A model generated the notes under the pieces. It was not told where the DNA came from. It did not search any database and saw nothing but the letters and a program-made list of their open reading frames with translations. From assembly GCA_039794045.1 (NCBI GenBank), contig JBAMLY010000015.1, positions 6,404-60,099 of the forward strand: a stretch of DNA of 53,696 bases, read 5' to 3'. Shown here piece by piece: positions 11,301 through 30,897 of this stretch (its first letter is position 1; each line of letters begins with the position of its first letter). The position numbers and the translations under genes were made by a program. The stretch is from Candidatus Micrarchaeia archaeon. Lineage in GTDB: Archaea; Micrarchaeota; Micrarchaeia; Norongarragalinales; UBA8480.

Positions 11301-14300
11301 CAGGCAAGCGCAAGGACTTGTCGTTGCGCGTCGTATCTGATTTGGGGGTGTCAATCGAAGACGCTAAAGTCGCGTTGCAGGAAATGGATGAAGCAGAGGC
11401 AGGCTCGCCTTTCGCTGGCTCGCCGCCTTCTCCGTTGCTCGGTGACGCGAGCGAGGACAACGGAAGAGACGGCTTCTACCGCTTTTCCAAGCTCAAGCCA
11501 GTCGCTCCAGGAAAGTTCTTGGTAGTCGTTTCGCGGGAGGGCTTCAAGGAAGCGACGGCGGAAGTGCAAGTAAAGACAACTGACTTCTTTTCGTTCGACC
11601 CAGAAGATGGAATAGAGTTGGACTGCAGGGGAGGAACGCTTAAAGTAAAGAATTTGCTTGACGCCAACGCGCCCCTTGACATAGTGGTTGGGCCTGGCGT
11701 GGACGCCCTTCCTTGCGTGAACGTTACTGGGCCGGGAGTGGTGAAAAAGCTAGAGCGTTCTCCTGGCGCGGCGGCCGGCTCTAATAAAGGACACCAATAC
11801 ATTCCAAGCGGTTCTTCTGCTGGTTCTTTCGTGGAAGCAGTTTATCACGTGGAGAACGTCAAGCCTGGCGCGACGAAGACGCTTAAGCTCACGCCGACCT
11901 CTAATGGCGATTGCACCATCGCTTTCTCTTCAAGTGACGCCCGCAGTGGCTCTAACTACTACTCTGAGTACGAGGTTTCGAACTTGTGCAACGCCTTTAA
12001 TACTTCCAGCGTGTCCCAAGTTCTCAACGTAACAGGCTATGTGTTGCGCGTTCAAGGCAACTTGTGGGTAGGCCCAGACGGCAAGAGCGGGCCCGCGCGC
12101 CTCCTGATTCCTGCTCCGAATGACACGCGCAGTGGAGACAATGTTTCTGCGACTGTGTGGTTCACTAACTTGGATGCTTCCGCGCACTCTTTCTACTGCC
12201 AGAACCGAGCGAAAGTCAGGGTGCTCAGCGTTTCCGCTCAACAGTTTCCGGCGAGCAGCGTAGTGAACTACACGTTCACGAGGCCGGGAATGTATTATTG
12301 TTACTTGGACAACGGAGACCTCGCGAAAATCAAGGTCAAGAGCGCGTGCCCCCACCACGGCGTCAACTACTACGCAGGCTTCATGGCCGCCTGCCTCTTC
12401 AAGGAAAACTTGTTGAAGGGCACCGCCCTCGGCGACATCGTCAACTTCGGTGCAAGCGCGTGGGAAGTCGCGGCAAGCATTCCAATTCACTACGACCTCG
12501 TGACTGGAACGCAGACTGGTGTGCCTAACTATCCCAACCCTTACTTGTCTACGGCGACAGTGGCCCAGTACGGCTTGCCGGTGTGCGGCATTCAAGGCTA
12601 TCCTTACGCGAACTTGCCTCCAAACTATGCTTACAACCAGCAAAACAATTACTTTTCTCCAAACGGCCAGCCAGTAACCATGCCGCAGGGAATGCCTTTG
12701 AGCCCACTTTCAACGCAGTGTTATGGCACGGGCTTTTACGAGAACATTAATTACGCGCCTCCTTCCACGACGACTGGCGCGGACTGCAAGACAGTAGGAA
12801 ACAAGATGACTTGCACGGTGCGCATCAGTCCAATGATGCGGTCTGGCGGCGTGCCGTTCGTGTTAGACAACGTTATACTAGACCAAATGCCTTTCCTGCG
12901 CGTTTCAAAGAAAATTGCGGGGAGCGGCAGCAACGACTGCTTCCAGTTGTGGGACTTGGACAACTACTACGGCACAAAGATAGGCGAGGCGCTCGGCAAA
13001 GGCTTTTTCCAAGTCACTGGCTTTGGCGCTTACCCGCTCGCGCGTTCTTTCGCGGTCGTCTTTAACCCCGACGACAAAGATAGCTGCATTAACTACGTCT
13101 ACAAAGACGGAAAACTTGTTGTTGAACCAGCGGGCGCCAGCGAGCAAGAAATGAAGATAAGCACTGGCATTGGCAGGGAACTCCGCATCGTCCTTAAAGT
13201 GTTGCCCCTCGAAAACGACGCGATGGCGCCGTACTACCTCACTGCAGTGCCCGCGGGTGGAAAGGTTGTGGCTCGCTCTTACGCAGACAAGGACTATTCA
13301 GTCGAGCCTTACTTGTTCGTCAACAACATTCCTGACCGCTCGGTTACGTTTTATTACGTTGACCAGAACGGCAACACCGTGGCTGAAACTGCTGGCGCGC
13401 CCACAAAGGCGACCGAGCAAAGCATTGTCTTGTTCGCGCCAAAAATTGTTGACAAGCAAAAAACGGTTGTCACGAAGCTCAAGATAGGAAGCGCTCCAGA
13501 AATAAGGTTCGACGACAAAAACAATTTTGTTGCATCTGACTCGCCCGCGTCTTTCGCCGTCAAAGCAATGGACGCCTTAAAGGGAACGGCGGTGCAGAAC
13601 GTAACGCTCTTGGACGTCGTTGGAAGCGTGGGCGCGGAAGACGGCCTTGCTCCAGCCCTCAAGTGTAGTGGCACCAAGTTCTGCACTCAAGAAGAAACAG
13701 AGAAGGCAGTGAAGGCAATCACTGAAGCAATTCAAAGCGCAGTCAAGCAGTCTTACTCTACCATGCCCTTCGTTTTAAAGCGCAGCTTCCTTGACGCGCA
13801 AGACCTCGGCTTCCAAAACTGTTTGGACGCGCTAGCCCGCGAGCTGATTGCGGACCGCGCGAGCGAAGCGGTTTGCAAGAACTTCTTCAACTTGTGCAAC
13901 AAAGACGAGTTCGACGCGGAAGAAGAAGAGATAGAGGAAGGAGAAGCAGAGGGAGTAAGTTATTCGTCGGTATCTGCTGCCGCAGGAGGAGCAATAAAGC
14001 AAGTAATCTGTCAAGGCACTCAAATGGGCCAGCAAGTGCAAGGAATAGAAAGCATTTTCGGCAACGCGCAGGCGCGCAACCTCATACGCCAAGCGTTCGG
14101 CCGCGCGCTGGGTTCAGGAACGTTCACGACCCCTGCGCCGACGCAGTTGCTTGAAAAAATCAGCTTGCCCGAGTTCTACTTCATGCTCAAGAAGGCCGAC
14201 CCGCTCGGCGGTGGAGTGGAAGGCACTGGCTTGAAGTTGTTCCACTTGAAAGTGAAAAGCATTGATGACTTGCTTGCGGCCGCGAGCCAGCAAACCGGCT

Positions 14301-16432
14301 GGGAAACTGTTTACGAGGAAACGGGCTTCGTGCCAGGCAAGCCCACCGAAATTCAGAGGATTGGAAGCATTCCCTACCGCGCCGCCAAATCAATTATTGG
14401 AGGCTTGTACGACTGGGCACGCGACGCAGTTGCAACGAGCGGCAAGAACCGCGGATTTCCGTACGTAGTCTACGACGAGAAAGCGAGCGCTTACACTATT
14501 GGCTTCAGCGAGTACCCGACTCTCGCGACGCTCAACAAGTTCGTCGTGCTTCCCTTCCTGGAGCCGCTCGAGGCAAGTGGTTCGCCGCAACTCTTGGACC
14601 ACGACCCACTTAAAATCGCGGAAGCCTTCAACAAGCAACGCCGAACTGCTCCCTCGACTTCGGCTGCGGCAACCGCAGTCTACGTTTCAAGTTGTTTTGA
14701 CTCGAACGTCATCACCGACAAGTCGTGCTTGGACTCCAGTGGAAGGCTGGCGAGCGCGGCCCCTGAAGTCGCTGAAGCGCTTGGCAAGAAGCCCGACGAA
14801 ATACTAGGCGTTGACGGCTACTTCGTGGTTCGCGTGACTGGAAGCGACTCGTGGACTAGCGTGCCCGAACTAAAAGTAGTGGTGAGAGAGCCGGCTGCTC
14901 CGTTAGACGGCAAGACGGCTTCAGTGGCTGAAGAAGTGCAGGAGATAGTAAAGTACTTCGCCGACGAGGCGTACGAACTCAAGCTGCCTGCAGGAAAAGA
15001 AAAATGGCCTTGCAACGCCACCGTGGTGAGCGCCTCGGAAATAGTTGGCTTCTGCCCAGGCAAGGTTGCAGTGCTTCAACCGCAGTCAATCACTCTCTCC
15101 GTCGTAGACGAAAAAGGCGTGCCAGTCAAGGCAAGCAAGCAAGGCAACTGCGATTACACTGTTGACTTGAGTGATGGATTGTACAAGTTCGTTTACTTCA
15201 GCGTCGCGCTTGGCTCCCAGCAGGCGACTAATCAGCCAGTCTCCTTGTCTTTCGGCAAGAGCACTGGGCCCGGAACCTTCGTTGAAGTAGTAGATAATTT
15301 CAAGCTCTTGCAACCAAACCTCGCATTCCCAGGAATTTCTTTCGGGCCGGCTTCAAGCGAGCCAAACGGCAGGTTCCGCGTGCTCGTAACCCAGAAAAAC
15401 CCAGTTCAAGGAAAGAACTATTTCACGGTTCAAGCATTTCACAAGACGAGCGAAGGCAAGCAAATAAATTCAGGCAAGGTAACCGTGTGCGTTACTCCAG
15501 CGACGCCGGCGGCTGCAGCGCCAGAACAACAAGCGAGAGGGATTGCTAGAGAAGGCACGCTTGGCTTCGTTGCAGTAAACACTGACCAGCAAGACAACCC
15601 TAACCTCAAAGGCTTGCCGGTTCCCTCTACTGCAGTAGTCAAATTCAACAAGGCCGGCGACCCCTCGTCAGGCGGCAAGATATCTATTGAGTTGGGCGCG
15701 TGCAGCGTGGACTGCGGCTGGACTGCAACGCTCGTGCAAGTCCCCAACGCCAACGTTTACGCCGGCAACTACAAGTGGTGGTGGAACAACGCTGCAGCGA
15801 GCTTCGCACACAAAGGCACTAAGACAACTATTGTTTACGAGTTCCCGCCATTCAACGAGTTGGAAGGCGTTCCACCAAAGCAAGGCAAAGGCATTCCGGC
15901 AGCCGACGGCGTTTTCTTCGAGTTATTCGTTTGCAGGGACGGCTTTGTGCCAATGCTGAAGAAACACAACGGCCAACTGTCCGAGGACTGGAACCGTGAC
16001 TTGTGGCAAAACTGTCGCATTGCGGCGCTCCCCCAGATTCCAAGAGAAGAATTGTGGAAGCCAAGCACGCCAAGCGCTCAGCCTTCAGCGCCCAAGCCAA
16101 CTCCTGCGGCAACCCAGGCGGCTGCGACTCCAACCATATCACCCGCAACTCAAGCAAAGAAGCTGCGCGGCGAAACCTGCGCGCAAGACTCTGACTGCGT
16201 GCCAGGCTCGTATTGTCGCGTTGCGGGCGCAAACCAAGACTTCACTTCATTTCTCTACCCGGACGAGATAATGCCAGTCAGGGATGGCATGAAATACTGC
16301 GTTGAGTTGGGCGTCGCAGAGAAAGGAGAGGAATGCATTCTCGTGAATGGAAGCGAGTCCGAGTGCGTCCAAGGACTAACCTGCAAGCGCGACGCCAGCG
16401 AAACGACGCGCGTCAAGTATTCTTGCCAGTAA
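8375..16432 (+). CDS. Giant membrane-anchored surface protein 2 (about 2685 aa)
   Basis: ATG 8375 (TTG 8366 is an alternative). IESRGIP plus TM helix, six carboxypeptidase-regulatory-like repeats, a Y/N/Q/P-rich segment, an acidic tract, a P/T/A linker and a terminal Cys-rich module (GETCxxDxDCxxGxYC; GEEC...CVQGLTC). Confidence 0.85.
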   Translation: MAEEKGLYYALEDKYYSLMEWIEGKLHIPVVRYFVDPIESRGIPSMPVFLLAVLLFAGVIAFIAFPFLSTAGLQTTILDVQVMANGAPLDGAQVTLLYNGEPFASAVSSDGVASFENVPVRGGYSVRVSAPGYAKFEKPVTLSSEPVSFTASLQSEGGAVIATPTPSGREYNFVVVVTDTAGKPVTNAVVDFSSPSPGGDSGSSTTNAQGEAVLKLSTQEQILLIDAHADGYLDERKAARAKDGGVKIELTSSGNAFFDSNGDNSGGASEGGQASFEGVDVLATIRDDAGNGVAVKCVLYDEQTSTPLDSAASDVGICSFKKAAQPGESVYVEVTPKDSSFLSKTSDSGIAQEGRLLEFKITLERATPPSTQEIRVSFKDEEGKPVSSASVNLYLLESNKLLGSSSTDENGLASFEVSSAIPLTSVYVTAYAEGFLPLSRELSGKDSSFVLQAAVTGNNADLAVRVKDDDGVLVSGATVVLLDGEGKILGMPAGTTDSAGIADFHGVPVGVELRARAASAPRFGESDVFSLSLGEEERTVDVFLAPARGSIRVFAEDLASGKPVAALKATAKLARDGTLEGSCVTDDNGSCIIQDVVAGKEVILVVSGPGYVEFTSSPFAVPANEIMEKKLKLLPSSLSNQTQVFLAEVRDEQGVDVTGAGVLSKAGYYWVRVVANFPKGVEEQGIMLRVGDKPTPAEEPAYIVSFDYAPVGVAAPVGFAGASYSPSGDSSSDLMNSDVSGGAKFVGVRFSGLAGSAELKARIFVKPTARPGIDKVKLYYRAWSRSGEVFSYEPADAVLGNSRKAADRDSLYAESRLASYDVVDGVLVCNDAGTACAALSFSSPENTVPSPSPFQAVLGRDFTVKYDLRVFGAFEASTAYARLWNPDETLKLKDFSGDGTSQKISDFEERVILSSAKQNYSGSFAVTPILPNQNARLAFEFGDGRGRILLSDANTVIVQGKGKLFITGLSPASLTAGKRKDLSLRVVSDLGVSIEDAKVALQEMDEAEAGSPFAGSPPSPLLGDASEDNGRDGFYRFSKLKPVAPGKFLVVVSREGFKEATAEVQVKTTDFFSFDPEDGIELDCRGGTLKVKNLLDANAPLDIVVGPGVDALPCVNVTGPGVVKKLERSPGAAAGSNKGHQYIPSGSSAGSFVEAVYHVENVKPGATKTLKLTPTSNGDCTIAFSSSDARSGSNYYSEYEVSNLCNAFNTSSVSQVLNVTGYVLRVQGNLWVGPDGKSGPARLLIPAPNDTRSGDNVSATVWFTNLDASAHSFYCQNRAKVRVLSVSAQQFPASSVVNYTFTRPGMYYCYLDNGDLAKIKVKSACPHHGVNYYAGFMAACLFKENLLKGTALGDIVNFGASAWEVAASIPIHYDLVTGTQTGVPNYPNPYLSTATVAQYGLPVCGIQGYPYANLPPNYAYNQQNNYFSPNGQPVTMPQGMPLSPLSTQCYGTGFYENINYAPPSTTTGADCKTVGNKMTCTVRISPMMRSGGVPFVLDNVILDQMPFLRVSKKIAGSGSNDCFQLWDLDNYYGTKIGEALGKGFFQVTGFGAYPLARSFAVVFNPDDKDSCINYVYKDGKLVVEPAGASEQEMKISTGIGRELRIVLKVLPLENDAMAPYYLTAVPAGGKVVARSYADKDYSVEPYLFVNNIPDRSVTFYYVDQNGNTVAETAGAPTKATEQSIVLFAPKIVDKQKTVVTKLKIGSAPEIRFDDKNNFVASDSPASFAVKAMDALKGTAVQNVTLLDVVGSVGAEDGLAPALKCSGTKFCTQEETEKAVKAITEAIQSAVKQSYSTMPFVLKRSFLDAQDLGFQNCLDALARELIADRASEAVCKNFFNLCNKDEFDAEEEEIEEGEAEGVSYSSVSAAAGGAIKQVICQGTQMGQQVQGIESIFGNAQARNLIRQAFGRALGSGTFTTPAPTQLLEKISLPEFYFMLKKADPLGGGVEGTGLKLFHLKVKSIDDLLAAASQQTGWETVYEETGFVPGKPTEIQRIGSIPYRAAKSIIGGLYDWARDAVATSGKNRGFPYVVYDEKASAYTIGFSEYPTLATLNKFVVLPFLEPLEASGSPQLLDHDPLKIAEAFNKQRRTAPSTSAAATAVYVSSCFDSNVITDKSCLDSSGRLASAAPEVAEALGKKPDEILGVDGYFVVRVTGSDSWTSVPELKVVVREPAAPLDGKTASVAEEVQEIVKYFADEAYELKLPAGKEKWPCNATVVSASEIVGFCPGKVAVLQPQSITLSVVDEKGVPVKASKQGNCDYTVDLSDGLYKFVYFSVALGSQQATNQPVSLSFGKSTGPGTFVEVVDNFKLLQPNLAFPGISFGPASSEPNGRFRVLVTQKNPVQGKNYFTVQAFHKTSEGKQINSGKVTVCVTPATPAAAAPEQQARGIAREGTLGFVAVNTDQQDNPNLKGLPVPSTAVVKFNKAGDPSSGGKISIELGACSVDCGWTATLVQVPNANVYAGNYKWWWNNAAASFAHKGTKTTIVYEFPPFNELEGVPPKQGKGIPAADGVFFELFVCRDGFVPMLKKHNGQLSEDWNRDLWQNCRIAALPQIPREELWKPSTPSAQPSAPKPTPAATQAAATPTISPATQAKKLRGETCAQDSDCVPGSYCRVAGANQDFTSFLYPDEIMPVRDGMKYCVELGVAEKGEECILVNGSESECVQGLTCKRDASETTRVKYSCQ

Positions 16433-16448: not shown

Positions 16449-19400
16449 ATGTCTTTACAAGATTTTTTTGTGGGTTTGCAGGAAAAGTGGGAGGAGTTCC
16501 TTGAGTGGAGCGACGAGAATGGCTTGCCGTTCCGCGAATGGAATGACGCCCTGGAGGCCCGCGGCATTCCCGCAATGCCGGTGTTCGCGCTCGCCGTTGC
16601 AGTCGTCTTTTTTGTGGCGTTCTTTCTCGTGGCCGGCTTTCCACAAATTCCTGGGGTTACCGTACAGCCTACTGCCACCGTAAAGCTCACCGTGTTGTCC
16701 GAGGAAGGAATAGGAGTTCCTAACGCGTTGGTTCAATTGAAGGCGAACGGCAAAATAATTGCCGCCAAGAACACTGACAGCAGGGGAATCGTTACTTTCT
16801 CTGACGTGCCAGCCGGCGAGCTTACTGCCGTGGCTTCGGCGGCTGACTTCAAGCAAGACTATGTGAGCGTGACAACTAAAGGCGGCGAAGCTTCAGCCCA
16901 GAAACTCGTTTTAGTGCGCGTTTCAAGCTTTAAAGTAGTAGTTTCCTTCGAAGTTCAAGGCCCCCAGTCCGCGAACTTCAGCGTTTGGGATGAAAACAAA
17001 ACGGTTTTAATTGACTCTGCTTCTGGCGCGACTGCTTCCTTCGAGTTAGAGCCCAGCAAGAATTACTTGGTGCGCGTTGAAGCCCCACAGTACACTCCAG
17101 AGGAGAGGCTGGTGCCAGTGGGAACAACTAATGCCGCGCCAATTTACGTGCGCTTGTTCAAGACGAGCGAGCCACGTACTGCTTCGTTGCACGTACTAGT
17201 TTACGACGACAAAGGACTCACGGGAGCGCCGATAGCCAATGCCTCAGTTCAAGTGCGCGCCAACAACTCCGAGGCAGTGATTGCGACCGGCGTCACGGAC
17301 GAAGAAGGCGCGATAGACGCTGTGGAAGCTCCAGTTGGTTCGCTGGTAACAGTTTACGCGAGCGCGCCAGGCTACTTGTCCACTGAAACAGAGGCTTTCC
17401 AAGTGCCAGAGGGAAGCGTTTACAAGAGAGTGCGGCTGGCCAGGAAAACCGAGGAAAACTCTAAAGCGATCGCGGTGAGCGTGACTACCGCCAGCGGCGA
17501 ATACGTTTCCTCGCCCACTGTGCGCTTGTACTGCGGCGGCCGCAAGAGAGACGAGAAAACTCCTGCAAGCGGGACGACTTCGTTTGACGCCGCGCTAGGA
17601 GAAAAGTGTTTGGTTACCGCTTTCAAGGAAGGCTTTCTGCCTGCCTCAAAGCAAGTGACCGCGAAAGGCGAAGCGACTCTCGTGCTCAAGGAAGCGACTT
17701 ACCTTAACTCTGCGTCGCTGGAAGTGAGCGTGGTGGACTCTGCAGGCAATCCAGTTCCCATGGCTTCCACTACAGTATTCAATTACTCGGGCGAACCACT
17801 TGGAATCCCAGAAAAGACTACTGGACTCAGCGGAACAACTTCTTACTACTTGCCTGAAGGCGATTACGTGGTGAGAGCTTCTTCGGGCAACAGCGAGGGA
17901 AGTGCGAAAACAAGAGTTTCGTTTAACGCCAACAACTCAGTGCAAGTCAAGCTGGCGCCCCTCAAAGCGGTGGCGGCAGTAACAGTTCAAGACTATTATT
18001 CTAATGCTTCAATTGCTGGCGCGAAAGTAACCTTGAAAGACGCGTCCGGCGCGACTGCTTCCTGTCTTACTTCGCTGCAAGGCTGTTCGCTTGAAGCTCA
18101 AGAAGGCCCTGCAGTCGTCTCAGTCGCTGCGCAGGGCTACGAAGACTATTCCGGCACGCTGGAATTAAGGGGAGGCACTACCACCAACTACTCGGTTGTT
18201 CTCGTGAACTCAAGAGTTTCAGCCGACGTCAAACTCGCGTTCCTCGGAGTTTTCGACTCCAAGGGAAGGCAAGTAAACAAGTTGTCGCCGGCAACTGTTT
18301 ATACTGCGCGCTACCTACTCAAAAACCCGGGAATCCCGTTCTACTCTGCCGAAGCATTCGTTTTGCTTGGCAGCGCGAGCAGCTCCCTCGAATCCGAAGA
18401 CGCGGAAATAATCGAGTACTCTGCAGACGGCGCGTCAATCACGGCGGGCGCTGATTTCTCGTCTGCCGCTGACTTCAGCGTGGAAGCGACTGCTACTGCA
18501 ACGCCTCAAAACTATTCACAGTCGAACTCGTCGGGCGGCGTTGCAGTGCTGCCATCCACAAAAGGAACCTCGCTCGCCTCCAACGCGGAAGGCTGGAAGT
18601 GGGTTAAATTTGTTTTCCCGCAGTTCAATGGCACAAAAGAACTCCGCGTGAAAATCCGCACCAAGCCAGTAGCGAGTGGCGCGCTGTCTTTAAGCCACCG
18701 CTCCGCGTTTGCCACGGCACGGGGAGTGTTACGCGACCCAGAAGACGCGGCTGCCGGCACTTCAAAGTCGCCTCTCCTCGCCAACTTGAAGCCCTCCGCA
18801 ACCTACGAAGTATTTTTCGCGGGAGAGTGCCAGAACGGGTTGTGCGTGCAAGCCTTCCTGGAAGGACAACAGGGAAGGTCGGCTGACTCGCTTGAAGCCC
18901 TCATTCCCGAGCAGTTCAAAGTGCGCTTTAGCGTCGCGTCAGCTTCAGGGCAAGCCACTCTCACTCTTTCAACTGAAAGCAATGCCTTGCAGTTGGTTGA
19001 CGCGTCAGCCGGCGCCACTAAAGTCGCCGCGAAAAGCCCTGCAGGAGAAACCCAGGAACTATCAATAAAATCAGGAGGCGATGGCGCGTTCAACGTAAAA
19101 GCAAAAGCGTTCGCGAAAGACGCCCGCCTCGTCTTGAACGCGGAAAGCGGCGACGCAAAGTACGAGAAAATTTTCTCGGTTCGCGTAGTCAGCCCAAAGA
19201 ACTCGCTTAAAGTTTCTTTGAAGCCAGAGCGCTTGATAGCACTGCAAGAGAATACAATAGTTTTCAAGGTGACAGACACTTTAAACAATCCAGTAACAAA
19301 CGCGCGCGTTGTGATAGGCTCGCAGGAAGACGCGCTCGGCTCCACCGTCGAAGCAGGGCCTGCAACAGGCAAGAACGCCGAGCCAGGAACTTACGTCGCG

Positions 19401-22400
19401 AGCCACGTTTCGCCGAGAGCGCACGGCAGCGTGCAGTGGAAAGTTGAAGCAGAAGGCTACAAAGCGAAAAGCGGGGAGGTAGACGCGATAGCCCGCAAAA
19501 TAATTGAGTTGAGCACGCGCTCTCTCTCGCTAAACGCCGACGGCCAGCCCGCGTCGTTCACAGTCTCTAACTTGCTGGAAAACGAGGTAACCGTTTCCGC
19601 GAGCGTCGCAGCCGACGAGAACCCTCAATACACTGAATTCGTGGTAACTCCAGCCACAGCCAAGCTCAAGCCACGCGAAGAAAAACAATTTCAGTTGACC
19701 GCTCGCCCCAAGCCAGGAGTGCTGACGGTAGCCGAGAAAGACTCGACTCTAACCGAAAAAACAAGCGGACGCGTTCACGTCACCGCCAGAGTAGCTGAAG
19801 CAGCGCAGGACGAGGACGCGAGGTTTTCGTGCACGAACGCCTTGCAGCGCTCCGCTCTTTCAAGCCTCCTCGAATACTCTGACGACGCCCTAGACTTTTC
19901 CTTGAACCCCCCTCGTGCCTCAAAGCAGTCAAAGAAAATAACGATTACCAACAACGCGCCTTACCCCGTGCTCGTCAACCAACAGTCTCTGGCGCCAAAC
20001 GTGCGAGTCACGCCACTCTCGCTCACCATTCCAGCGAACGGAAAAGCAGAGTTCACTGTGACCGCTGGCTTGCCGCCCGAGTCCGCGAACGACAAATGCA
20101 TAGTAGACGATTCAACTACGGAAAGCGACATTGAATTCTATGCTTCCTTCCAAGGCATTAGCGCCACCAAAGTAGTCAAAGCAAAAATTGCTTTGACGGC
20201 GAGCACGCGCTGCTACCTCGCCGACGGCCTAGTGTACAACTTGCCCGTGCCCGTGGTCTTCAAGTTCCCGGCTGGAACGAAAGTGCGCGGAGCACCCGCC
20301 GACGACGGCTCCATTCCAGTGCTTTTGCCTGACGGAAACAAAATGGTTTTCTTTGAAGGAACATCTATTTATGGGCCGTACGCAGTAGAGCGAAGCCAAC
20401 CTTACTACGATTCAAGTTATTCTTTCGACTCTTACCCCCAGTACGGAGAGTACGGCAGCATGGTTTACTTGCAGACTCAAACTGGATTGACGCCCCTCCA
20501 GTTCGCTCAAAGCCCGTACGGAAGCATTCCCTTCTATCCAGCAAGCGCTGCTGCGCCCTACTACCAGAACCCGCAAGCTTACTTCGGCGGCTCGACGCAA
20601 ACCCAGACGCAGACGACGAGCGTCACCCTCCAACAAGCAGTAGTACCCGCGGGCGTGGGCTTCGTCATGTCGTCAAAGTTCGCGCGCCAGCTCGCCATAG
20701 ACCCCGTAACGCTAGCAAGCAACGCCGTGGCAGTAACCTTCCCAGTAGTCGCCTTCCTCGAACTCCCAGTGGACGCGCGGCCCGTTCCAGACGCGGCTGG
20801 AGTGCGCTACAACCTACGCAACGCCTACGTCGTCCTACCGGCAGGCTTGCCGACCATGCGCGCGCCATCTTACGGCAACATCGTGCAAGTCCCGCCAGGC
20901 ACTCCACTATTGTTCGGCCGCACTGGCTCGAATTACGGCAGCATGGAATTGTCTTACGACGAAGACACTTACATTGACTTTCCACGCGACGCAGTAGTCC
21001 AACAACTCCCGAGCGGAGTGCAAGCCACTCTCTCGGAGTGCGCGCAAGTGAAAGTAAAGAGCTTGGACGACAAAATGACTGACTCAACGCCAGCCGCGAA
21101 AACGGTTTTCGTGGAAGGCGGCACTCTCTTTGGAGCCAACAAGAACCGCGTCATCGTGCCAGCTCAGGCGAGAATAAAAGTTTCCACTTGCTTGGACGTG
21201 ACAGAAGAACAACAAAAGCTTTTCTGCAGCTCTCGCAGGCAACCAATGACGCTCGTGCTCCCGCCAGGCTACCGCGGCCCGCCCTCGCGCTTCACGATAG
21301 CATTCGACTCCTGCGTTCCAATGGACGTGAAAGGCGCTCGCGGCTCCCAAGTTTCTGCGGTGAGAAAAATTTACTTCGAGCCCACCGCTAAAGGACAACA
21401 ACTTTCTTCGGGAGGACAACAACTCTACCAAGTAAGCGTGCCCGAAGGAAGCCAGTTATGCGTGCTTCCCTGCGACGCGTCGGGAACCGTTTCAGTAACC
21501 GCTTACGGCGACTACTTAGACTTCTCGCCGAAGACAATCAATTTTACTCTCTCGGATTCAAGGCAGTCCGCCCAAGCCGAGTTGTGCTTGTACAACACTG
21601 GCAGCGAACTCCTCCAGCCATTCAACCCAGAATCATACGTTGAACTCATTTCCTCGCCCACGGACGACGAGGCATTCAAGTCCGCCGTCAAAAAAGAAGG
21701 AATTTACTTTGCCGGCCAAGTTGGAAAACCCGCAAACCTCCCTCTCTCGTTCGAGAACAAGGCGTGCAACAAGCTCGTAGTGGAAGCCAGCCTCCCTTCT
21801 TCAGGCGACTGGACTGACGCTTACGGCTGCGTCAAAAAAGAAGGAACGATAACCGGCTCCATCAAGTTCCACGCAAAATCCACTAAGTGGCAGGGGTCAG
21901 TCAGCGTTCCAGTCACCATCAAAATAGTAAGGCAAGCAAAAAACTGCAACTCGCCTGCAGCCTTAGACAAAGCGAACTCGCTGCACTCCTTCTTCGTCAA
22001 CTACGCTGACTCAGTGCTTTCATTCAAAGCCCCCGGCCACTACCGGTTCGTCATCCTCGCAAACAACTTACTGGAACCAGCCACTATTTCCTCCAACCTC
22101 GACTCGTCGTCGCCAATAAAATGCGATTTCCCGCAACAACTAGCGCCAGGCGAAGCCAAGCTAGCAAAATGCATTTCGTTGAAGCCCGCCGAAAACTTTC
22201 AGTTGAAAATTACTGCAAAGCCAGCGCGCGCTGCCAGCCTCGACTTCCTCGTGAAAGTCAACGTTTTCAACGCGCAAGACAGCGTCTACGATTCAACGCC
22301 GCTCGGCGAGCTCGCCCCCCAAACCACGCAGCAAACGAACCAGACGGCCGCGCAGAGCCCCCCACAAGCTTATTACGTCGTCTGCGAGAAGTACTTCTGC

Positions 22401-24686
22401 AACGCCGCCCAAGCGAGCACCGCTTATTCTTCCTTCCTCGCGGCAATGAAGTCCTTCCTTGACTCCGTGACCGCGGACGCGGCAACGCACCAGCGCTTCT
22501 GCCAGTCTACTGTGGGCAGCAGCGAGGAAAACGCGTTGAAAGTAGTAGAAAAAACAATAGTAATACAAAAAACGGCTGCAACTCAGTCCATCGCAGAGTT
22601 CAACGAGCAATTCCTCAAAACAGCGAGGGAAATCCTGCCCGACTACGCTTCAGGCGAGAACTTCTTCCAAGGAATTCCAAGCGAAAGCATTGCTGGCTGC
22701 GGCTGGTACAAAGTCAGCGTCGCGCTCGATGCCTGCAAGGAAATGGGTTCGCACGCCAGCCAGGACTGGAAGAAGCGCGTGGGACTACGCGTGCGCATAG
22801 AAAGAATGAGCGAGAGCGACGAATGCAAGCCCACGCTCGCCAACGCCTTGCTGTTCTTGAAGGCAAGCTCTCCAGACTCTCTCGGAGTAACAGTGGGAAA
22901 CCGCGTGGCAGTATGGCCAGACGAAGTAAGCGGCAAGCGCCTGCTCTCAGTAGTTGACAAGACAAAAGAAAACTGGGACAAAGTCAAGGCAAGCCAGCCT
23001 TCAACGTGGCTTTACTTGTTCGACGTAGGCGTCCTCGCCCTTGGCCCCTACGCAGACCAAGCCGACGAAGCAGACGTGAAGACCGCGCAAACGCTTTACC
23101 AAATGATTTACGGACAGCAAGCAAAGTCAGCCGCAAAGTCAACTTACTACGACGACGCAACATTCTGCAGCGCAAACGCGCCACAGCAACTCAAGTGGAT
23201 TGCGGTAGGCGGTTCTTCTCTCGCCGCCGCAGGCACGCTACTCGCCTTCCTGCCGGCAGGCGCGTCCCAAGTAGTTTCGGCGTTCCTCGTCCCACTCGGC
23301 TTGAAGCTCGCGGCAGGCACGGCAACCACGGCAGCACTCTGCGTGGGAAGCGCGGCCGCTTACGGAGAGAAAGGAACGTGCGCTCGCTACAACGACTGCA
23401 TTCGCAGCGCGATTTTCGGCGCAGCAACTGCAGCCATTCCCACGGCTGGCGAGCTCGCGGCATTCAAGACTGCTTCTGCAGCGTTGAAGACTACTGCGGC
23501 GCTCACTGCCTCGACTGCGGGCGTGGTGAGCGCCGTCAACTTGCTTGCGCCAGACGGCCCCGAAACCACTGACGCCACGATTCCATTAGTTGCAACGGGC
23601 TACGCGGCAGCCACTACTGTTTCTTTCTCGCGAGCGCAAGCTCGCGCGGCTTCGCCGGTCGCCAAACTCGAACAACAAGGCGCGCTATTGCCTGGCTCGC
23701 CGTTCGGAAGAGAAGTTGAATCCCTCATTGCTCAGGGAACAAGTTGGGAGGACGCAGTCGCGTCAGCGAGAGAAAAACTCGTGGCAGAAAAGGCGCAGGA
23801 ACTCGCGAGAATGAAGCCTTCCGCGCTTGGAGAAATTGCTTACGCGCACAGCATAGACCCAGCACTCGCTGCTTCCGACGCCGCCGTCCAGAAAAGCCTT
23901 GCCACTGCCATCGTATTAGAGGAAACCAGGCCTGCCTCCGTGCTGCAGCAAATGGAGAACGTGAAGCTCTTCAACGGAAAAATTCAGTTCGCTGAACCAG
24001 CGTTCGCCGCTGGCGCTGGTATCTTGCCGCAACAGCAAGCCAAGCTAACGCAGTTGCTTGACCCCAAGTCGTTCGCCCAACAAACGCCTTCGCAGGCGTT
24101 CCTTGGACTGACTGACGCCGAGAAAACAGTTTTCAAGGCCGCGGCAGAGAAGACGAGCAAGGCGAGAAACGCTTTAGTGAAGAGCTCGAACGCTTTCAAG
24201 GCAGGCGCGCAAATAGGCGCTACGCTATTGTTCCAGGTTGACGCGCGCCCCGTCATGGCCAAGCTTGACCCCGCCCTGCCAACTCATTTCGTTGCCTACC
24301 ACTTGACGAGGAAAGGCGATTCCTTCGTTCCAACTGCCTTCAAGCTCTGCGTCACTGAAAAACGCGTTGGAGTAGAGCCGGACGAGGACGGCTGCGTTAA
24401 AGGGCAATCGTTTTACTTAGCTGACTTGTGCAACTCGGATTACTCGGCTTGCTTGTACGAAACGCCGGTCTACACTTCCTCGCCTTCCGCGCCAGCCTAC
24501 AACTTGGTTGTTGCGGTGAACGACGAGAGAATCGACGCCAAGGCATTGCTTGAGTCTGTGTTCTTGCCTGACGCCAAGCCGTTGACGGCAAACATTGGCG
24601 GAGGAACGCTTTCGCCGCAGAAAATCGCTGAACTCGCGCAAACGAGGAACGAGAAGGGAAGCGGCAAGGCGTTCGCCGGAAAGTGA
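16449..24686 (+). CDS. Giant membrane-anchored surface protein 3 (2745 aa)
   Basis: LEARGIP plus TM helix, six repeats collinear with proteins 1 and 2, a Y/Q/P-rich segment, and a long Ala/Gly-rich hydrophobic region near the C-terminus. Starts 16 nt after protein 2. Confidence 0.85.
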   Translation: MSLQDFFVGLQEKWEEFLEWSDENGLPFREWNDALEARGIPAMPVFALAVAVVFFVAFFLVAGFPQIPGVTVQPTATVKLTVLSEEGIGVPNALVQLKANGKIIAAKNTDSRGIVTFSDVPAGELTAVASAADFKQDYVSVTTKGGEASAQKLVLVRVSSFKVVVSFEVQGPQSANFSVWDENKTVLIDSASGATASFELEPSKNYLVRVEAPQYTPEERLVPVGTTNAAPIYVRLFKTSEPRTASLHVLVYDDKGLTGAPIANASVQVRANNSEAVIATGVTDEEGAIDAVEAPVGSLVTVYASAPGYLSTETEAFQVPEGSVYKRVRLARKTEENSKAIAVSVTTASGEYVSSPTVRLYCGGRKRDEKTPASGTTSFDAALGEKCLVTAFKEGFLPASKQVTAKGEATLVLKEATYLNSASLEVSVVDSAGNPVPMASTTVFNYSGEPLGIPEKTTGLSGTTSYYLPEGDYVVRASSGNSEGSAKTRVSFNANNSVQVKLAPLKAVAAVTVQDYYSNASIAGAKVTLKDASGATASCLTSLQGCSLEAQEGPAVVSVAAQGYEDYSGTLELRGGTTTNYSVVLVNSRVSADVKLAFLGVFDSKGRQVNKLSPATVYTARYLLKNPGIPFYSAEAFVLLGSASSSLESEDAEIIEYSADGASITAGADFSSAADFSVEATATATPQNYSQSNSSGGVAVLPSTKGTSLASNAEGWKWVKFVFPQFNGTKELRVKIRTKPVASGALSLSHRSAFATARGVLRDPEDAAAGTSKSPLLANLKPSATYEVFFAGECQNGLCVQAFLEGQQGRSADSLEALIPEQFKVRFSVASASGQATLTLSTESNALQLVDASAGATKVAAKSPAGETQELSIKSGGDGAFNVKAKAFAKDARLVLNAESGDAKYEKIFSVRVVSPKNSLKVSLKPERLIALQENTIVFKVTDTLNNPVTNARVVIGSQEDALGSTVEAGPATGKNAEPGTYVASHVSPRAHGSVQWKVEAEGYKAKSGEVDAIARKIIELSTRSLSLNADGQPASFTVSNLLENEVTVSASVAADENPQYTEFVVTPATAKLKPREEKQFQLTARPKPGVLTVAEKDSTLTEKTSGRVHVTARVAEAAQDEDARFSCTNALQRSALSSLLEYSDDALDFSLNPPRASKQSKKITITNNAPYPVLVNQQSLAPNVRVTPLSLTIPANGKAEFTVTAGLPPESANDKCIVDDSTTESDIEFYASFQGISATKVVKAKIALTASTRCYLADGLVYNLPVPVVFKFPAGTKVRGAPADDGSIPVLLPDGNKMVFFEGTSIYGPYAVERSQPYYDSSYSFDSYPQYGEYGSMVYLQTQTGLTPLQFAQSPYGSIPFYPASAAAPYYQNPQAYFGGSTQTQTQTTSVTLQQAVVPAGVGFVMSSKFARQLAIDPVTLASNAVAVTFPVVAFLELPVDARPVPDAAGVRYNLRNAYVVLPAGLPTMRAPSYGNIVQVPPGTPLLFGRTGSNYGSMELSYDEDTYIDFPRDAVVQQLPSGVQATLSECAQVKVKSLDDKMTDSTPAAKTVFVEGGTLFGANKNRVIVPAQARIKVSTCLDVTEEQQKLFCSSRRQPMTLVLPPGYRGPPSRFTIAFDSCVPMDVKGARGSQVSAVRKIYFEPTAKGQQLSSGGQQLYQVSVPEGSQLCVLPCDASGTVSVTAYGDYLDFSPKTINFTLSDSRQSAQAELCLYNTGSELLQPFNPESYVELISSPTDDEAFKSAVKKEGIYFAGQVGKPANLPLSFENKACNKLVVEASLPSSGDWTDAYGCVKKEGTITGSIKFHAKSTKWQGSVSVPVTIKIVRQAKNCNSPAALDKANSLHSFFVNYADSVLSFKAPGHYRFVILANNLLEPATISSNLDSSSPIKCDFPQQLAPGEAKLAKCISLKPAENFQLKITAKPARAASLDFLVKVNVFNAQDSVYDSTPLGELAPQTTQQTNQTAAQSPPQAYYVVCEKYFCNAAQASTAYSSFLAAMKSFLDSVTADAATHQRFCQSTVGSSEENALKVVEKTIVIQKTAATQSIAEFNEQFLKTAREILPDYASGENFFQGIPSESIAGCGWYKVSVALDACKEMGSHASQDWKKRVGLRVRIERMSESDECKPTLANALLFLKASSPDSLGVTVGNRVAVWPDEVSGKRLLSVVDKTKENWDKVKASQPSTWLYLFDVGVLALGPYADQADEADVKTAQTLYQMIYGQQAKSAAKSTYYDDATFCSANAPQQLKWIAVGGSSLAAAGTLLAFLPAGASQVVSAFLVPLGLKLAAGTATTAALCVGSAAAYGEKGTCARYNDCIRSAIFGAATAAIPTAGELAAFKTASAALKTTAALTASTAGVVSAVNLLAPDGPETTDATIPLVATGYAAATTVSFSRAQARAASPVAKLEQQGALLPGSPFGREVESLIAQGTSWEDAVASAREKLVAEKAQELARMKPSALGEIAYAHSIDPALAASDAAVQKSLATAIVLEETRPASVLQQMENVKLFNGKIQFAEPAFAAGAGILPQQQAKLTQLLDPKSFAQQTPSQAFLGLTDAEKTVFKAAAEKTSKARNALVKSSNAFKAGAQIGATLLFQVDARPVMAKLDPALPTHFVAYHLTRKGDSFVPTAFKLCVTEKRVGVEPDEDGCVKGQSFYLADLCNSDYSACLYETPVYTSSPSAPAYNLVVAVNDERIDAKALLESVFLPDAKPLTANIGGGTLSPQKIAELAQTRNEKGSGKAFAGK

Positions 24687-24692: not shown

Positions 24693-25370
24693 ATGCCAGC
24701 ACAAAAAAAGAACGTGGAAGAACTCGCCCGCAAGGGAAGCCGAAACCTTTTGCTTGTCATAGTAGTGGTCGCGTTTTCTGTCGCCGCGCTTTATTATTAC
24801 TCGCAAGAACAAGCAAAGCAAATTGCTTTCCAGCAACAAGCTCCAGCGACTCTGGCTGCGCAGGGACGCGAGCTCTCGCTCTCGCCAACGCAGGTGAAGT
24901 CCCTCACTTTTTCTTTCACTGACGAAGAGTACGGCTTCAAAATTTTTTACCCGAAAACCTACAAGGCAGAAGAAAACCCTGACGCGGCAACGCGGTTGCG
25001 CTTCACCACGCAAAACCCTGCCAGCACCCTCCAAGAACCGCGTTCAGCTGAAGTGGTTGACTTAAGGGTCTTTGACTCGCAGGACGCCCTTGAACACGTT
25101 TCCGCGCAAGAAGCAGCGCAAAAAATCGCTGGCGAGGCCGGAACGCAGTACGAGAAAATGGTTTCGGCGAACGGCAAACCGTTTTTCTTCGTGAAAGGCA
25201 CAGTGGCAAGCGACGTCACGGGAGAGCAGTTGTTGTTGCGTGCCGCGTTCTACGACTGCAAGACGAGAGAGGAAAGGGCTTACACTGCCGCGTTGATCGC
25301 TGTTATTCCCTTCGAGTTAGAGTTTGATGCGTTGTACTGGCAGCAAATAATGAAGTCGTTCGAGTGCTGA
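24693..25370 (+). CDS. Membrane-anchored PsbP/Mog1-like domain protein
   Basis: N-terminal TM helix and the FTDEEYGFKIFYPKTY motif typical of the start of PsbP-related folds. Starts 6 nt after giant protein 3. Confidence 0.6.
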   Translation: MPAQKKNVEELARKGSRNLLLVIVVVAFSVAALYYYSQEQAKQIAFQQQAPATLAAQGRELSLSPTQVKSLTFSFTDEEYGFKIFYPKTYKAEENPDAATRLRFTTQNPASTLQEPRSAEVVDLRVFDSQDALEHVSAQEAAQKIAGEAGTQYEKMVSANGKPFFFVKGTVASDVTGEQLLLRAAFYDCKTREERAYTAALIAVIPFELEFDALYWQQIMKSFEC

Positions 25371-28772: not shown

Positions 28773-29204
28773 TTACTTCGCCATTTTAGTGCGGAGCAAG
28801 AGTTCCCTGTTAGTTTCAAGGATTTTACGGTTTACTTCTTGGAGGGCTTTAAGCATTGCAGTTATTTCTTCCAGCTTGCGTTCTACTGCTTCGATGTCTC
28901 CTGTCGTGGTCGAGGTAATGCGTGACACGAGTTGCTCGCCAGCTGCTGCCGCGCTCTGAACTGGTTTTCCTTTGCCGACTTCAATGGTTTTTTCTTCTTC
29001 GCCGGAGAGGGTGGTGAACTCGAATTTAGGTGCTTCTTCTACTGGCTCGGGGGCTTCTTTTGGTGTTGTTACTTCTTGCAGGGCAGAAACCTGCGAGAGG
29101 ACTTCGTCCGGGTTTGCGACGCCGAGGGCTTCAAGGTTGCTTCGTATTTCTTGTTCACTCATTCCTTTCGCGCGCATTTGTTGCACGATCAGCTTCAAGT
29201 CCAT
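28773..29204 (-). CDS. Hypothetical protein with an N-terminal helical domain and C-terminal coiled coil
   Basis: ATG 29204 preceded by GGAG. MDLKLIVQQMRAKGMSEQEIRSNLEALG, then a heptad-rich C-terminus IEAVERKLEEITAMLKALQEVNRKIL. Confidence 0.7.
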   Translation of the reverse strand: MDLKLIVQQMRAKGMSEQEIRSNLEALGVANPDEVLSQVSALQEVTTPKEAPEPVEEAPKFEFTTLSGEEEKTIEVGKGKPVQSAAAAGEQLVSRITSTTTGDIEAVERKLEEITAMLKALQEVNRKILETNRELLLRTKMAK

Positions 29205-29219
29205 GAACTCATTAACTCC

Positions 29220-29236
29220 AAAAGTATTTATAAAAG
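29220..29236. promoter_or_regulatory. Bidirectional TATA element
   Basis: AAAAGTATTTATAAAAG reads as a TATA box on both strands, between divergent starts at 29204 and 29263. Confidence 0.55.
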
Positions 29237-29262
29237 CCTCCATTACTATTTTCGGTTTTTGC

Positions 29263-30897
29263 ATGGAGCTTGACTTGCCTTACGGGCCGTGGGTTCGCTT
29301 GGTTTACGGGCAGTGGGGAAAGTATCCCGTGGCATTGTTTCAAAACCCGGACAAGTTGTTGATGCTTGTTTTGTTCGAGAAGAAAGGCGACCAAGTTACC
29401 GGCATGGTGATGATGCTTAAACGCGTTTTCGTGGTGGACGGCGAGCTTGGAAAATTCATGCAAGCGCAAAAGCGCGAGGTCACGCTCGTGGAAAAGTTTT
29501 CCAAGGACTACTCTGGCAGGTACTTAGTGATTTCTTCCACTCCAGTGTACGCGCGCTACACTCAAGACGAGCTAATTGAAAACGTGAAAAAGCATTACTT
29601 GGAGTTAGAGGGGCTCGCAAAAATAACTCTGGAAATGGCGGCGGGCTACGGCTTTAAAATACGCGACCTCAGCAAGGCCAGCGAGGAAGAAGCGCAATTG
29701 TTTTTGGGGGACCCGCTATCGTTGTTTTCTTACTCGGTGGCCGGCGGCGCGCCAGGCGCTGCAGGAGAAGCGGCTTTAAAGATTCCGCGTTTTCAGCTCG
29801 GCGTAAACAAGGAAGGCGAGGAATACGAGTTGAAAATGGATTCCTTGTTCGCAGTTTGCGTGGTGGGCGGGGCGAGAAGCAATCGCTTGCACGTAGTCCA
29901 CGTATTATGCGAGGCAGCGCTCTACAACGGAGTTCCGGTAATGGTGTTCGACTCCAGCGGCGCTTTCAAGGGACTTGCTTTGCCGAACAATGACTCCTCC
30001 AAGTACGCGCAATTCAAGTTGGCTGGCAGTCCTGCCGGTTTTCCCTTCAAGGGCTTCGTTTTAGGAGAGAACTTGTTCATCGACTTAGGGAACACTGACT
30101 CGAACTTGTTCCTGAAAACTTTTGGGTTGGAGAAGACGGAGTTCGCTTCAATAATCAAGGCCGTTCACTCTCAAATCAAGGGCAGCGCGTCCTCTCTCGG
30201 CGACTTGGCTTCCGCGTTAAACAACTTGAAGGAGTCCAAAGACATGCTGTTATTCAACATAAAGCGCGCGTCTCGCTGCATTCAAGTAATCCAGAAGGTT
30301 TACCCGTCACTCTTCAACAAAGTCATTTCGCAGGACTTGACGCAGCCGTGGCACGACGCGACAGGACGCGCTTGCCACGTCGACTTGTCGCGTTACCCCA
30401 TCGAAGTTCAAAAACTAGCAATAAACACTTTACTACAAGGAATAGTCATTCCCCCGACTGCGTCCCTGCAGTTGCTGCTCGCATTCGAGCCAGACGCTAG
30501 CGCGTTAGCCGAAGAAATCGCTTTCGCGTTAGACAAGTTCAAGAAGCAAGGAGTGGGGATCGCCGTCAACGTCGAGCACGAGCTTGACTTCAAGCAATTA
30601 GGCGACATGGAGGCAGTCATTGAAGTAATCAACGACGAAGCCGTCGCGAAAGAAAAAGGCGAAAAGCAAGCCAGGTTTTCAGTGCGGCCAACTTACTCGC
30701 TTTGCACTGAGAACGCGCCGCCAGCGCCAAAAGAAAAACCAGTTGAAGTCGTGGAAGCACGCAAGGCGCCACTCGAAGTGCTTCACCTGCCGTTCGCGAA
30801 ACCTGAAGTTGAAGCCAAAACAAGCCAACAGCAGCCCGCACCAGAAAAGCCTGCCCCCCAAGAGGCCCTGCGCGGGCGGTGGCGAATGCGCTCCTAA
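29263..30897 (+). CDS. HerA/VirB4 (DUF87-like) ATPase-fold protein with degenerate Walker motifs
   Basis: The pattern FQLGVN...VCVVG...VLCEAALYNGVPVMVFDSSG and later KKQGVGIAV follow the HerA/FtsK scaffold. Walker A reads VVGGARSNRL and Walker B reads LLLAFEPD. Start placed at ATG 29263. Confidence 0.65.
   Translation: MELDLPYGPWVRLVYGQWGKYPVALFQNPDKLLMLVLFEKKGDQVTGMVMMLKRVFVVDGELGKFMQAQKREVTLVEKFSKDYSGRYLVISSTPVYARYTQDELIENVKKHYLELEGLAKITLEMAAGYGFKIRDLSKASEEEAQLFLGDPLSLFSYSVAGGAPGAAGEAALKIPRFQLGVNKEGEEYELKMDSLFAVCVVGGARSNRLHVVHVLCEAALYNGVPVMVFDSSGAFKGLALPNNDSSKYAQFKLAGSPAGFPFKGFVLGENLFIDLGNTDSNLFLKTFGLEKTEFASIIKAVHSQIKGSASSLGDLASALNNLKESKDMLLFNIKRASRCIQVIQKVYPSLFNKVISQDLTQPWHDATGRACHVDLSRYPIEVQKLAINTLLQGIVIPPTASLQLLLAFEPDASALAEEIAFALDKFKKQGVGIAVNVEHELDFKQLGDMEAVIEVINDEAVAKEKGEKQARFSVRPTYSLCTENAPPAPKEKPVEVVEARKAPLEVLHLPFAKPEVEAKTSQQQPAPEKPAPQEALRGRWRMRS

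Follow-up and report, generated by a model that had tools for sequence, protein, structure and literature searches.

What does the cysteine-bracketed, hydrophobic C-terminal region of a very large archaeal surface protein do: carry a toxin across a foreign membrane, anchor the protein in the membrane of its producer, or cap an adhesive stalk? This question is raised by G3, the third of three giant open reading frames (ORFs) in a 53,696-nucleotide stretch of DNA from a Candidatus Micrarchaeia archaeon (assembly GCA_039794045.1, contig JBAMLY010000015.1, positions 6,404 to 60,099), hereafter the window. By its anchor, domain content, length and non-viral context, G3 (16449-24686, + strand, 2745 amino acids (aa)) is a giant surface protein of DPANN archaea, adhesin-like and built of immunoglobulin-like (Ig-like) repeats, and its C-terminal region is a conserved, lineage-specific module of Micrarchaeota/DPANN giant surface proteins that was previously undescribed and unannotated. 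A first-pass annotation had described this region as polymorphic-toxin-like, with hydrophobic helices that might translocate a helical insert across a host membrane. The reading favoured here, tentatively and at somewhat less than an even chance, is that the module is a glycan-free distal tip lying outside the cytoplasm and bearing a disulfide-stapled hairpin with a latent capacity to insert into membranes.

Architecture of the C-terminal module

All peptides quoted in the first-pass annotation were recovered in frame 1 of the 2745-aa ORF, exactly where it had placed them: WIAVGG at aa 2250, LCVG at 2297, TCARYNDC at 2310 and IPTAG at 2330, while FCSAN starts at aa 2239, so that its Cys is encoded at nucleotide 23166. 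The Ala/Gly/Leu/Thr-rich stretch bracketed by Cys that it reported covers aa 2240-2391, with 58.6% of these four residues and 8.6% charged residues, and is the compositional extreme of G3, in which 150-aa windows average 35.4 +/- 6.2% Ala/Gly/Leu/Thr and reach a global maximum of 60% at aa 2252. Its description of a Gly/Ala-rich, membrane-type hydrophobic helical block, then a charged helical region of about 180 aa, and then a terminal domain containing Cys is likewise confirmed, these elements corresponding to blocks B and C, segment D and segment F below.

The module spans G3 aa 2122-2745, encoded on the + strand, in the order A-B-C-D-E-F-G. Segment A (aa 2122-2241; 22812..23171), delimited from alignments and AlphaFold2 (AF2) modelling, is a conserved α/β pre-domain with 41% identity to the nearest homologue, carrying the motifs CPxN(L/V)ANAxL, GPY and YxDxxFC and ending with the invariant Cys2240. 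Segment B (block B, aa 2242-2335; 23172..23453) is recognized from alignments, AF2 and composition as a Gly/Ala-rich, charge-poor helical block (52% Ala/Gly/Ser/Thr, 9% charged) with three predicted helices (H1-H3; 2237-2265, 2273-2304 and 2310-2329), the invariant Cys 2298, 2311 and 2317, the motif CxxxNDC(I/V)xxAxFGA, and a Gly/Pro turn and a K/R near the beginning of helix 2 that are both conserved. Segment C (aa 2336-2391; 23454..23621), Ala/Thr-rich and amphipathic by alignments and composition, has zero Cys and ends in a conserved xIP(L/P) motif. Segment D (aa 2392-2579, 188 aa; 23622..24185), the variable helical insert defined by alignments and AF2, is 21% charged in G3 (21 K+R, 19 D+E), contains 20% Ala and is predicted to be mostly helical. 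It consists of a helical subdomain (~aa 2403-2493), a linker modelled at low confidence and, just ahead of segment E, a basic helix, and at its start the motif [LIVMF][LIVMFA]xxGx[ST]xxxA(V)xxA was recognized by eye in at least nine homologues.

Segment E (aa 2580-2603; 24186..24257; alignments, AF2) comprises a basic cluster (+4 to +6), a short hydrophobic helix (aa 2581-2594) and, behind it, an acidic DVDV, and ends with the motif F-x-V-D-(V/A)-R-P-V with an invariant Pro. A signal-peptidase site between VDA and RP was considered and rejected, because in most homologues position -1 is occupied by V, L, F or T. Segment F (aa 2604-2712; 24258..24584) is a conserved beta-rich domain with two Cys pairs (Cys 2634, 2649, 2661 and 2668 in G3) and the motifs FYLA(D/N)xCNSDxxACL and S(V/I)FxPDxxP. 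Segment G (aa 2713-2745; 24585..24683), the C-terminal tail defined from alignments, carries the motif GGxLSxxxIxxL...D(T/K)G(S)GK(A/G). An otherwise unrelated fragment of 244 aa (P0022) ends in 41 aa of G3-type tail (63% identity, ...GGxL..I..LA...KG(S/T)GKAFAGK), which points to a C-terminal motif that is portable or else to a contig that is chimeric.

AF2 was run on a 16-sequence alignment, with a mean predicted local distance difference test score (pLDDT) of 63.6. Segments A and E-F are modelled confidently (pLDDT 80-95; 80-91 over most of A, ~66 for the segment E helix), A and F folding as globular domains. Block B is modelled as three long helices at pLDDT 42-59 with no confident bundle, segment C is undefined (pLDDT <40), and the insert forms a small helical subdomain at aa 2403-2493 (pLDDT 68-84) with no enzyme-like fold. 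In the model, the H1/H2 hairpin has Cys2240 and Cys2298 at its open end and H3 has Cys2311 and Cys2317 near its beginning, a placement that would be compatible with disulfide stapling. Foldseek returned nothing significant for the whole module; its matches to G protein-coupled receptor (GPCR)-BRIL fusions (E>=0.09, TM-scores ~0.1) were judged noise. Searches of the PDB by sequence (single sequence and profiles) and by fold gave no match for the module parts, domain F included, apart from a flagellin match (E=0.084) that was set aside as compositional. Assignment of domain F to the MCE/MlaD-like lipid-transport domains was also considered and rejected, since it lacks fold similarity to the MCE beta-barrel.

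Conservation of the family and divergence of the insert

A single HMMER scan, exhaustive over 1.84 billion representatives and queried with G3 aa 1546-2745, supplied the homologues: 22 clusters, mostly giants of 2487-3453 aa, with the same module order. Because this order and the invariant Cys 2240, 2298, 2311 and 2317 (G3 numbering) recur in 15 aligned homologues, the feature is not a product of chance. The nearest homologue, P0001 from the Micrarchaeota metagenome-assembled genome (MAG) GCA_001871495.1, is 44% identical to G3 in the first ~2000 aa and 34% identical in the remainder. A further homologue search with aa 2101-2745, a 16-sequence module profile and a 20-sequence E+F profile gave zero matches, though G3 itself is indexed, probably owing to a word index that was swamped by low-complexity words or did not reach the giants; the family data therefore come from the one HMMER run. 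A genome-contig scan with the C-terminal region of G3 found no relative, and a metagenome scan with a 5-sequence profile found two loci, one of them identical to P0001. The C-terminal 645 aa of G3 have no Pfam, NCBIfam or PDB sequence match.

Within this family, insert D is clearly the fastest-evolving segment between conserved flanks. Mean identity to G3 across the 15 homologues is 23% for A, 22% for B and for C, 10.6% for D and 28% for both E and F, and insert lengths span 34-271 aa. Compared with the nearest homologue, identity is 45% for the ectodomain and for domain F but 25% for the insert. The inserts alone gave significant blastp matches in 0/120 pairs, compared with 52/120 for A+B and 76/120 for E+F; even between G3 and P0001 the inserts are mutually undetectable by blastp, yet E+F match at 5e-35. 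Between the homologue at locus L089 and P0001, which share ~58% identity in E+F, the proximal part of the insert is collinear and homologous, with the identical stretch TSLARARVLETQ, and the distal half differs by ~130 aa of indels. This collinearity and the shared motif indicate rapid divergence by substitution and indels, with no swapping of unrelated cassettes. The hypervariability that the first-pass annotation had proposed as a check thus holds as far as the low conservation, variable length and lack of blastp matches are concerned, but the insert stays collinear in close relatives.

The neighbourhood of the module is conserved as well. Synteny extends across the family loci, where other giants lie on the upstream side and one and the same partner gene recurs on the downstream side; the upstream giant at the P0001 locus (L083) is an orthologue of G2. 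In the window, the partner gene (24693..25370, + strand) lies downstream of G3 and encodes a 225-aa protein with an N-terminal transmembrane (TM) anchor and a ~150-aa domain, bearing the motif YxDEEYGFxxxYPxGYxAEENPD and two C-terminal Cys. Partners of ~210-245 aa with 24-36% identity stand directly 3' of the giants in five distinct loci (the window, L083 (= L090), L085, L086 and L089), and DUF424 is close by in the four that have Pfam-annotated gene calls. No Pfam or NCBIfam match was accepted for the partner protein, whose candidate counterpart in the giants is domain F.

Absence of polymorphic-toxin hallmarks

Pfam scans of full-length G3 (E<=0.1), of aa 2101-2745 (E<=1) and of 16 modules (E<=0.1) returned Ig-like families or nothing. 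No pre-toxin domain (PT-VENN, PT-TG, PT-HINT, DUF637), RHS core, CdiA, RTX or toxin family was found by Pfam in G3 or the 16 modules, and no secretion or trafficking domain (TPS, PAAR, LXG and similar) in G3, whose N-terminus is a signal-anchor with a ~40-aa peptide. The variable segment is internal, and the domain at the extreme C-terminus, F, is the best conserved (28% mean identity). Unlike a co-varying immunity gene, the gene downstream of the giants is a conserved one encoding a TM-anchored protein (24-36% identity across five loci). Because the C-terminal domain and the downstream gene are conserved and no toxin family is present, G3 does not belong with the polymorphic toxins, and the label 'polymorphic-toxin-like' given to the region is withdrawn. 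The overall layout is nevertheless similar to that of such toxins, with a conserved stalk and a diverging distal region.

Sidedness of the module

Block B and segment F contain 3.8 and 3.7 Cys per 100 aa, compared with 1.46 in the cytoplasmic proteins of the window, and segments C and D together contain 0 Cys in 4067 aligned residues. The first Cys pair of F is lost together in two homologues (P0009 and P0012), and this paired loss fits disulfides.

The distribution of N-glycosylation sequons (N-x-S/T) was assessed as observed against shuffle-expected counts in 11 full-length homologues (G3 and 10 others). Sequons are enriched 1.34-fold in the proximal ectodomain (aa 80-800; 82 observed, 61 expected), ~4-fold depleted in the distal ectodomain, both at aa 801-1500 (13 observed, 56 expected; ratio 0.23) and from aa 1501 to the module (14 observed, 53 expected; ratio 0.26), and ~30-fold depleted in module A-G (1 observed, 39 expected; ratio 0.03). 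Insert D alone, counted in 16 sequences, contains 0 sequons where 18.8 are expected (ratio 0), and cytoplasmic controls stand at 8 observed against 9.7 expected (ratio 0.8). Avoidance of sequons is sensible only where the sequence meets the oligosaccharyltransferase, so the module would be extracytoplasmic. The gradient suggests a glycan-coated stalk near the membrane of the producer and a naked distal tip. In G1 and G2, the two giants upstream of G3, sequons likewise lie mostly in the N-terminal half.

A split homologue, L084, occupies a 5.5-kb contig (1-5471; JGI 3300014204 Ga0172381_10024260), its homologue ORF being open to the contig edge. In its first gene, a helical stretch of ~450 residues and an AAA+ ATPase of the classical kind (Walker A GPPGTGKT, Walker B VFMDEID, Pfam AAA 6.6e-11) come after blocks B and C, up to a TAA stop. 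The second gene starts 15 nucleotides after this TAA, in the same frame, with a canonical Sec-type signal peptide, 400 Cys-free helical residues and E+F. The AAA+ part contains 0 Cys (~5.9 expected) and 0 sequons (3.3 expected). Read-through of the in-frame stop joining the two genes was discarded, recoding of a TAA being unsupported, and so was a topology deduced by parity from an internal AAA+ and the signal peptide of gene 2, as no single topology satisfies all constraints. Either the block has been rewired into a true anchor in that lineage or the ATPase is exported, and the latter option keeps delivery into a host alive as a reading, at low probability.

From the Cys pattern, the sequon depletion and the signal peptide of L084, three independent signals, we infer that the whole module probably lies outside the cytoplasm.

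Membrane affinity of block B and segment E

Insertion free energies of the Hessa type (dG, in kcal/mol) were summed over 19-residue windows, lower values being more membrane-like. The N-terminal anchors of all family members are of TM grade (-4.4 to +0.2); that of G3 (~aa 43-66; 16575..16646, + strand), preceded by a conserved ~40-aa cytoplasmic peptide, has a dG sum of -3.3 kcal/mol and a Kyte-Doolittle 19-mer maximum of 2.92. The best 19-mer of block B is at +1.8 in G3, +1.2 to +2.9 in five other full-length homologues and +0.2 in P0021, and 5 of the 12 scanned homologues have no block-B segment with dG <= +3. Kyte-Doolittle values point the same way (2.9 for the anchor vs 1.65-1.73 for block B), and block B is probably not a plain self-anchor.

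For segment E, the best 19-mer lies at +6 to +15 across the family, and apolar runs measure 3-16 aa (median ~7; 7 in G3). With such values and a 7-aa apolar run, segment E cannot be a TM helix; if it indeed spans no membrane, D and F share one side. The second hydrophobic segment noted in the first-pass annotation, AFKAGAQIGATLLF, is indeed present (aa 2582-2595; nucleotides 24192-24233), but it is not TM-grade. That annotation had also named two outcomes that would speak against its model, an insert as conserved as the rest of the protein and hydrophobic helices that are ordinary multi-pass self-anchors; neither was observed, the insert being less conserved than the rest and the helices not having the look of ordinary stop-transfer self-anchors.

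Proposed mechanism and alternative readings

By computation, the strongly hydrophobic N-terminal signal-anchor holds G3 in the membrane of the archaeon itself and is followed by ~2100 aa of Ig-like domains. In the tentatively favoured reading, the module would lie outside the cytoplasm after Sec export, at the glycan-free end of this stalk, the membrane-proximal third of which would be glycosylated. Block B would be kept soluble as a disulfide-stapled hydrophobic hairpin; being only marginally hydrophobic, it could pass the translocon of the producer and at a later stage move into another membrane. Such a latent membrane-inserting element might engage a foreign (host) membrane and so tether the symbiont or open a contact site. 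Insert D would serve as a fast-evolving spacer or hinge arm between the hairpin and domain F rather than as a swapped toxin cargo, and the conserved domain F would probably bind a ligand or partner.

Several points weigh against this reading. Insertion into a host membrane is an inferred step, and the stapled hairpin is a predicted structure in a region modelled at pLDDT 42-59. Thermophiles can have cytoplasmic disulfides, and since the window comes from a hot-spring sample, the argument from Cys pairs is weakened. N-glycosylation by the organism, the presumption behind the sequon argument, is deduced only from the 1.34-fold proximal enrichment. Marginal helices are common in genuine multi-pass proteins too, and the free energies are a crude, position-independent sum of scale values after Hessa et al. 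2005. In L084, finally, helix H1 of block B is TM-grade (dG +0.2), and an AAA+ ATPase placed after block B would normally imply a cytoplasmic location.

That TM-grade helix speaks for block B as a second self-anchor, a hairpin with an even number of crossings in the organism's own membrane that would loop the ectodomain and leave D, E and F on its own surface beside the partner. The charge-poor block of ~95 aa, with its conserved Gly/Pro turn and K/R early in helix 2, would suit such a hairpin, D and F would stay outside as the Cys and sequon data ask, and the product of the partner gene is TM-anchored in the same cell. However, 5 of the 12 scanned homologues lack a block-B segment at dG <= +3, H1 contains Asp or Glu in some of them, and all family members, as well as the paralogue G2, which has no C-terminal hydrophobic block, are already strongly anchored at the N-terminus; the sequon gradient, moreover, is the one expected from a proximal-to-distal polarity rather than from two proximal ends. 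We regard this arrangement as a real possibility, if a somewhat unlikely one. Hydrophobicity below TM grade could equally mean that block B has no membrane role and is the buried Ala/Gly core of a soluble or oligomeric disulfide-stapled bundle, the module being an adhesin cap and D its linker. Four invariant Cys at helix ends, the confident globular predictions for A and F and the extracytoplasmic composition of the module agree with this, but ~95 residues at 8-9% charge in 16/16 homologues, with uncharged stretches of 20-30 residues, would be unusual in a soluble protein, AF2 gives no confident bundle, and G1 independently carries a similar Cys and Gly/Ala hairpin near its C-terminus, so that this soluble cap appears unlikely.

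Readings in which the insert reaches a cytoplasm fare worse. The model of the first-pass annotation, a polymorphic-toxin- or MARTX-like translocation unit whose flanks carry the insert as cargo across a host membrane, draws on a hypervariable insert between conserved flanks, free of Cys and sequons as translocated polypeptides tend to be, and on the equally Cys- and sequon-free AAA+ ATPase at the insert position of L084. The AAA+ case comes from one 5.5-kb contig, however, and the G3 insert is an Ala/Gln/Lys/Glu-rich helical segment without an enzyme-like fold that remains homologous and collinear in close relatives; with no pre-toxin, toxin, RHS, CdiA or RTX domain in G3 or the 16 modules, a conserved C-terminal domain, no variable immunity gene and a segment E too weakly hydrophobic to be part of a pore, this model is very unlikely. 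A related reading, in which the hairpin would insert into the membrane of a host archaeon and the Cys- and glycan-free region (mostly the helical arm; AAA+ in at least one lineage) would be threaded into the host cytoplasm, is quite unlikely. An ordinary multi-pass anchor would instead give block B an odd number of crossings, make D a cytoplasmic loop and E the returning TM helix, and leave F outside. The basic cluster before E and the acidic DVDV after it match the positive-inside rule, the AAA+ after block B in L084 suits a cytoplasmic position, and the insignificant top matches of Foldseek were TM bundles with helical inserts. Yet no homologue brings E anywhere near TM grade, D is devoid of Cys and of the 18.8 sequons expected, an avoidance that cytoplasmic proteins do not show, and the E+F gene of L084 needs a signal peptide, which 400 helical residues separate from E; this topology is the most improbable of those considered.

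Comparison with known systems

Like the polymorphic toxins (CdiA, Rhs/YD, MafB-type), G3 is exported and of giant size, its long conserved stalk leading to a C-terminal region that contains a fast-diverging segment, and it stands among tandem paralogous giants that differ in their C-terminal halves. Unlike them, it has no PT-VENN, PT-TG, PT-HINT, RHS, FHA or toxin domain, its variable part is internal and helical with the extreme C-terminal domain most conserved, no immunity gene or orphan cassettes accompany it, and it is an archaeal protein with a Sec-type N-terminal TM anchor.

In MARTX toxins, a variable effector region lies between conserved flanks that mediate translocation. G3, too, is exported and very large, with conserved regions enclosing a variable one in a penultimate or central position, and one G3 homologue has an enzyme domain (AAA+) at the variable position. 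Compared by general architecture and Pfam scans, G3 differs from MARTX in having no RTX (glycine-rich nonapeptide) repeats, cysteine protease domain or type I secretion system signal, and its insert lacks an effector-like fold. A purely functional analogy may also be drawn to helical pore formers that bury a hydrophobic hairpin (colicin pore domains, the diphtheria toxin T domain, the Bcl-2 family) and to Gly/Ala-rich viral fusion peptides, the shared trait being an Ala/Gly-rich, uncharged, marginally hydrophobic helical hairpin that stands beside amphipathic helices in an exported protein. There is no sequence or fold match to these pore-forming bundles, the block B model is of low confidence, and the four invariant Cys staples are foreign to those families.

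SPEARE of Nanohaloarchaeum is a giant surface protein of an episymbiont. Giant1-5 of Apilactobacillus kunkeei (PMC12863079) and giant genes of Omnitrophota (bioRxiv 10.1101/2023.11.21.568195) are bacterial cases. Set beside all of these by description, the present locus is similar in its tandem, multi-kilobase, Ig-like-rich surface genes, in belonging to small-genome or symbiotic organisms and in its presumed role in cell-cell contact. The library searches linked the A-G module to no named family.

The locus and its surroundings

The three giants occupy the first 24.7 kb of the window in tandem on the + strand: G1 (142-7257, 2371 aa), G2 (8366-16432, 2688 aa) and G3. In each, a strongly hydrophobic anchor at the N-terminus is combined with Ig-like repeats of the CarboxypepD_reg, Big_1 and bMG3 families; G3 also has PEGA. 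Paralogy of G3 to G1 and G2 is limited to its first ~1100 residues (24-28% identity), the C-terminal halves being unlike. An identical G3 protein is present on a JGI metagenome contig and in the NCBI MAG GCA_049972335.1, and the sole public run with window DNA, by assembled contigs, is a hot-spring metagenome. Cellular genes in the window include PolB, pyruvate:ferredoxin oxidoreductase (POR) subunits, Sua5, a class II aminoacyl-tRNA synthetase, MetAP and DUF424. A contig scan found the closest PolB relatives (<=62% identity) in Micrarchaeota MAGs, which places the window in Micrarchaeota.

G1 has, at ~aa 2239-2310 (6856-7071), a Cys and then a Gly/Ala-rich hairpin, CDTSIASIAGGALVVGGLVFVTGATAGLAGAPIAGVLVTAGG..., with a best 19-mer dG of +1.5, followed by a Cys-containing tail of ~60-90 aa without an insert; this hairpin may represent a comparable tip device in a paralogue. 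Cys-rich knots form the end of G2, which lacks a hydrophobic block at the C-terminus. The G2 orthologue at L083 (1119-8366) is 40% identical across ~2100 aa, and the final ~300-600 aa are unalignable, so the G2-type giants may be the ones with truly replaceable C-termini. The same locus carries toxin-antitoxin-type modules (AbiEii; NTP_transf_2 with HepT or HEPN) between and after the giants (8464-9790 and 18651-24101), which are absent at the equivalent places in the window. In the middle of the G3 ectodomain (aa ~1335-1485; ~20451-20903) lies a Tyr/Gln/Ser/Pro-rich low-complexity stretch, SQPYYDSSYSFDSYPQYGEYG...QTQTQTT, which is nearly charge-free and is the protein-wide charge minimum (6.7%). 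Three further large ORFs of the window, at 28972-30897 (641 aa) and 33834-35918 (694 aa), both without a Pfam match, and at 39791-42121 (776 aa), with Big_2 and Big_1 Ig-like domains, may encode additional surface proteins.

Implications for DPANN archaea

How DPANN archaea engage, and possibly breach, their hosts is the wider question to which this module belongs, and giant surface proteins are routinely noted in this setting with no mechanism assigned. The module provides landmarks by which such proteins can be recognized, namely four invariant Cys, the CxxxNDC and DVRPV motifs, a novel beta domain, a polarity signature and a conserved partner gene. Delivery into the host, if it were true, would make the module an archaeal, Sec-anchored analogue of MARTX- or contact-dependent inhibition (CDI)-type cargo translocation by a DPANN symbiont. 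If, as in the reading tentatively favoured here, the tip inserts into host membranes, it would represent a new class of archaeal cell-cell contact effector.

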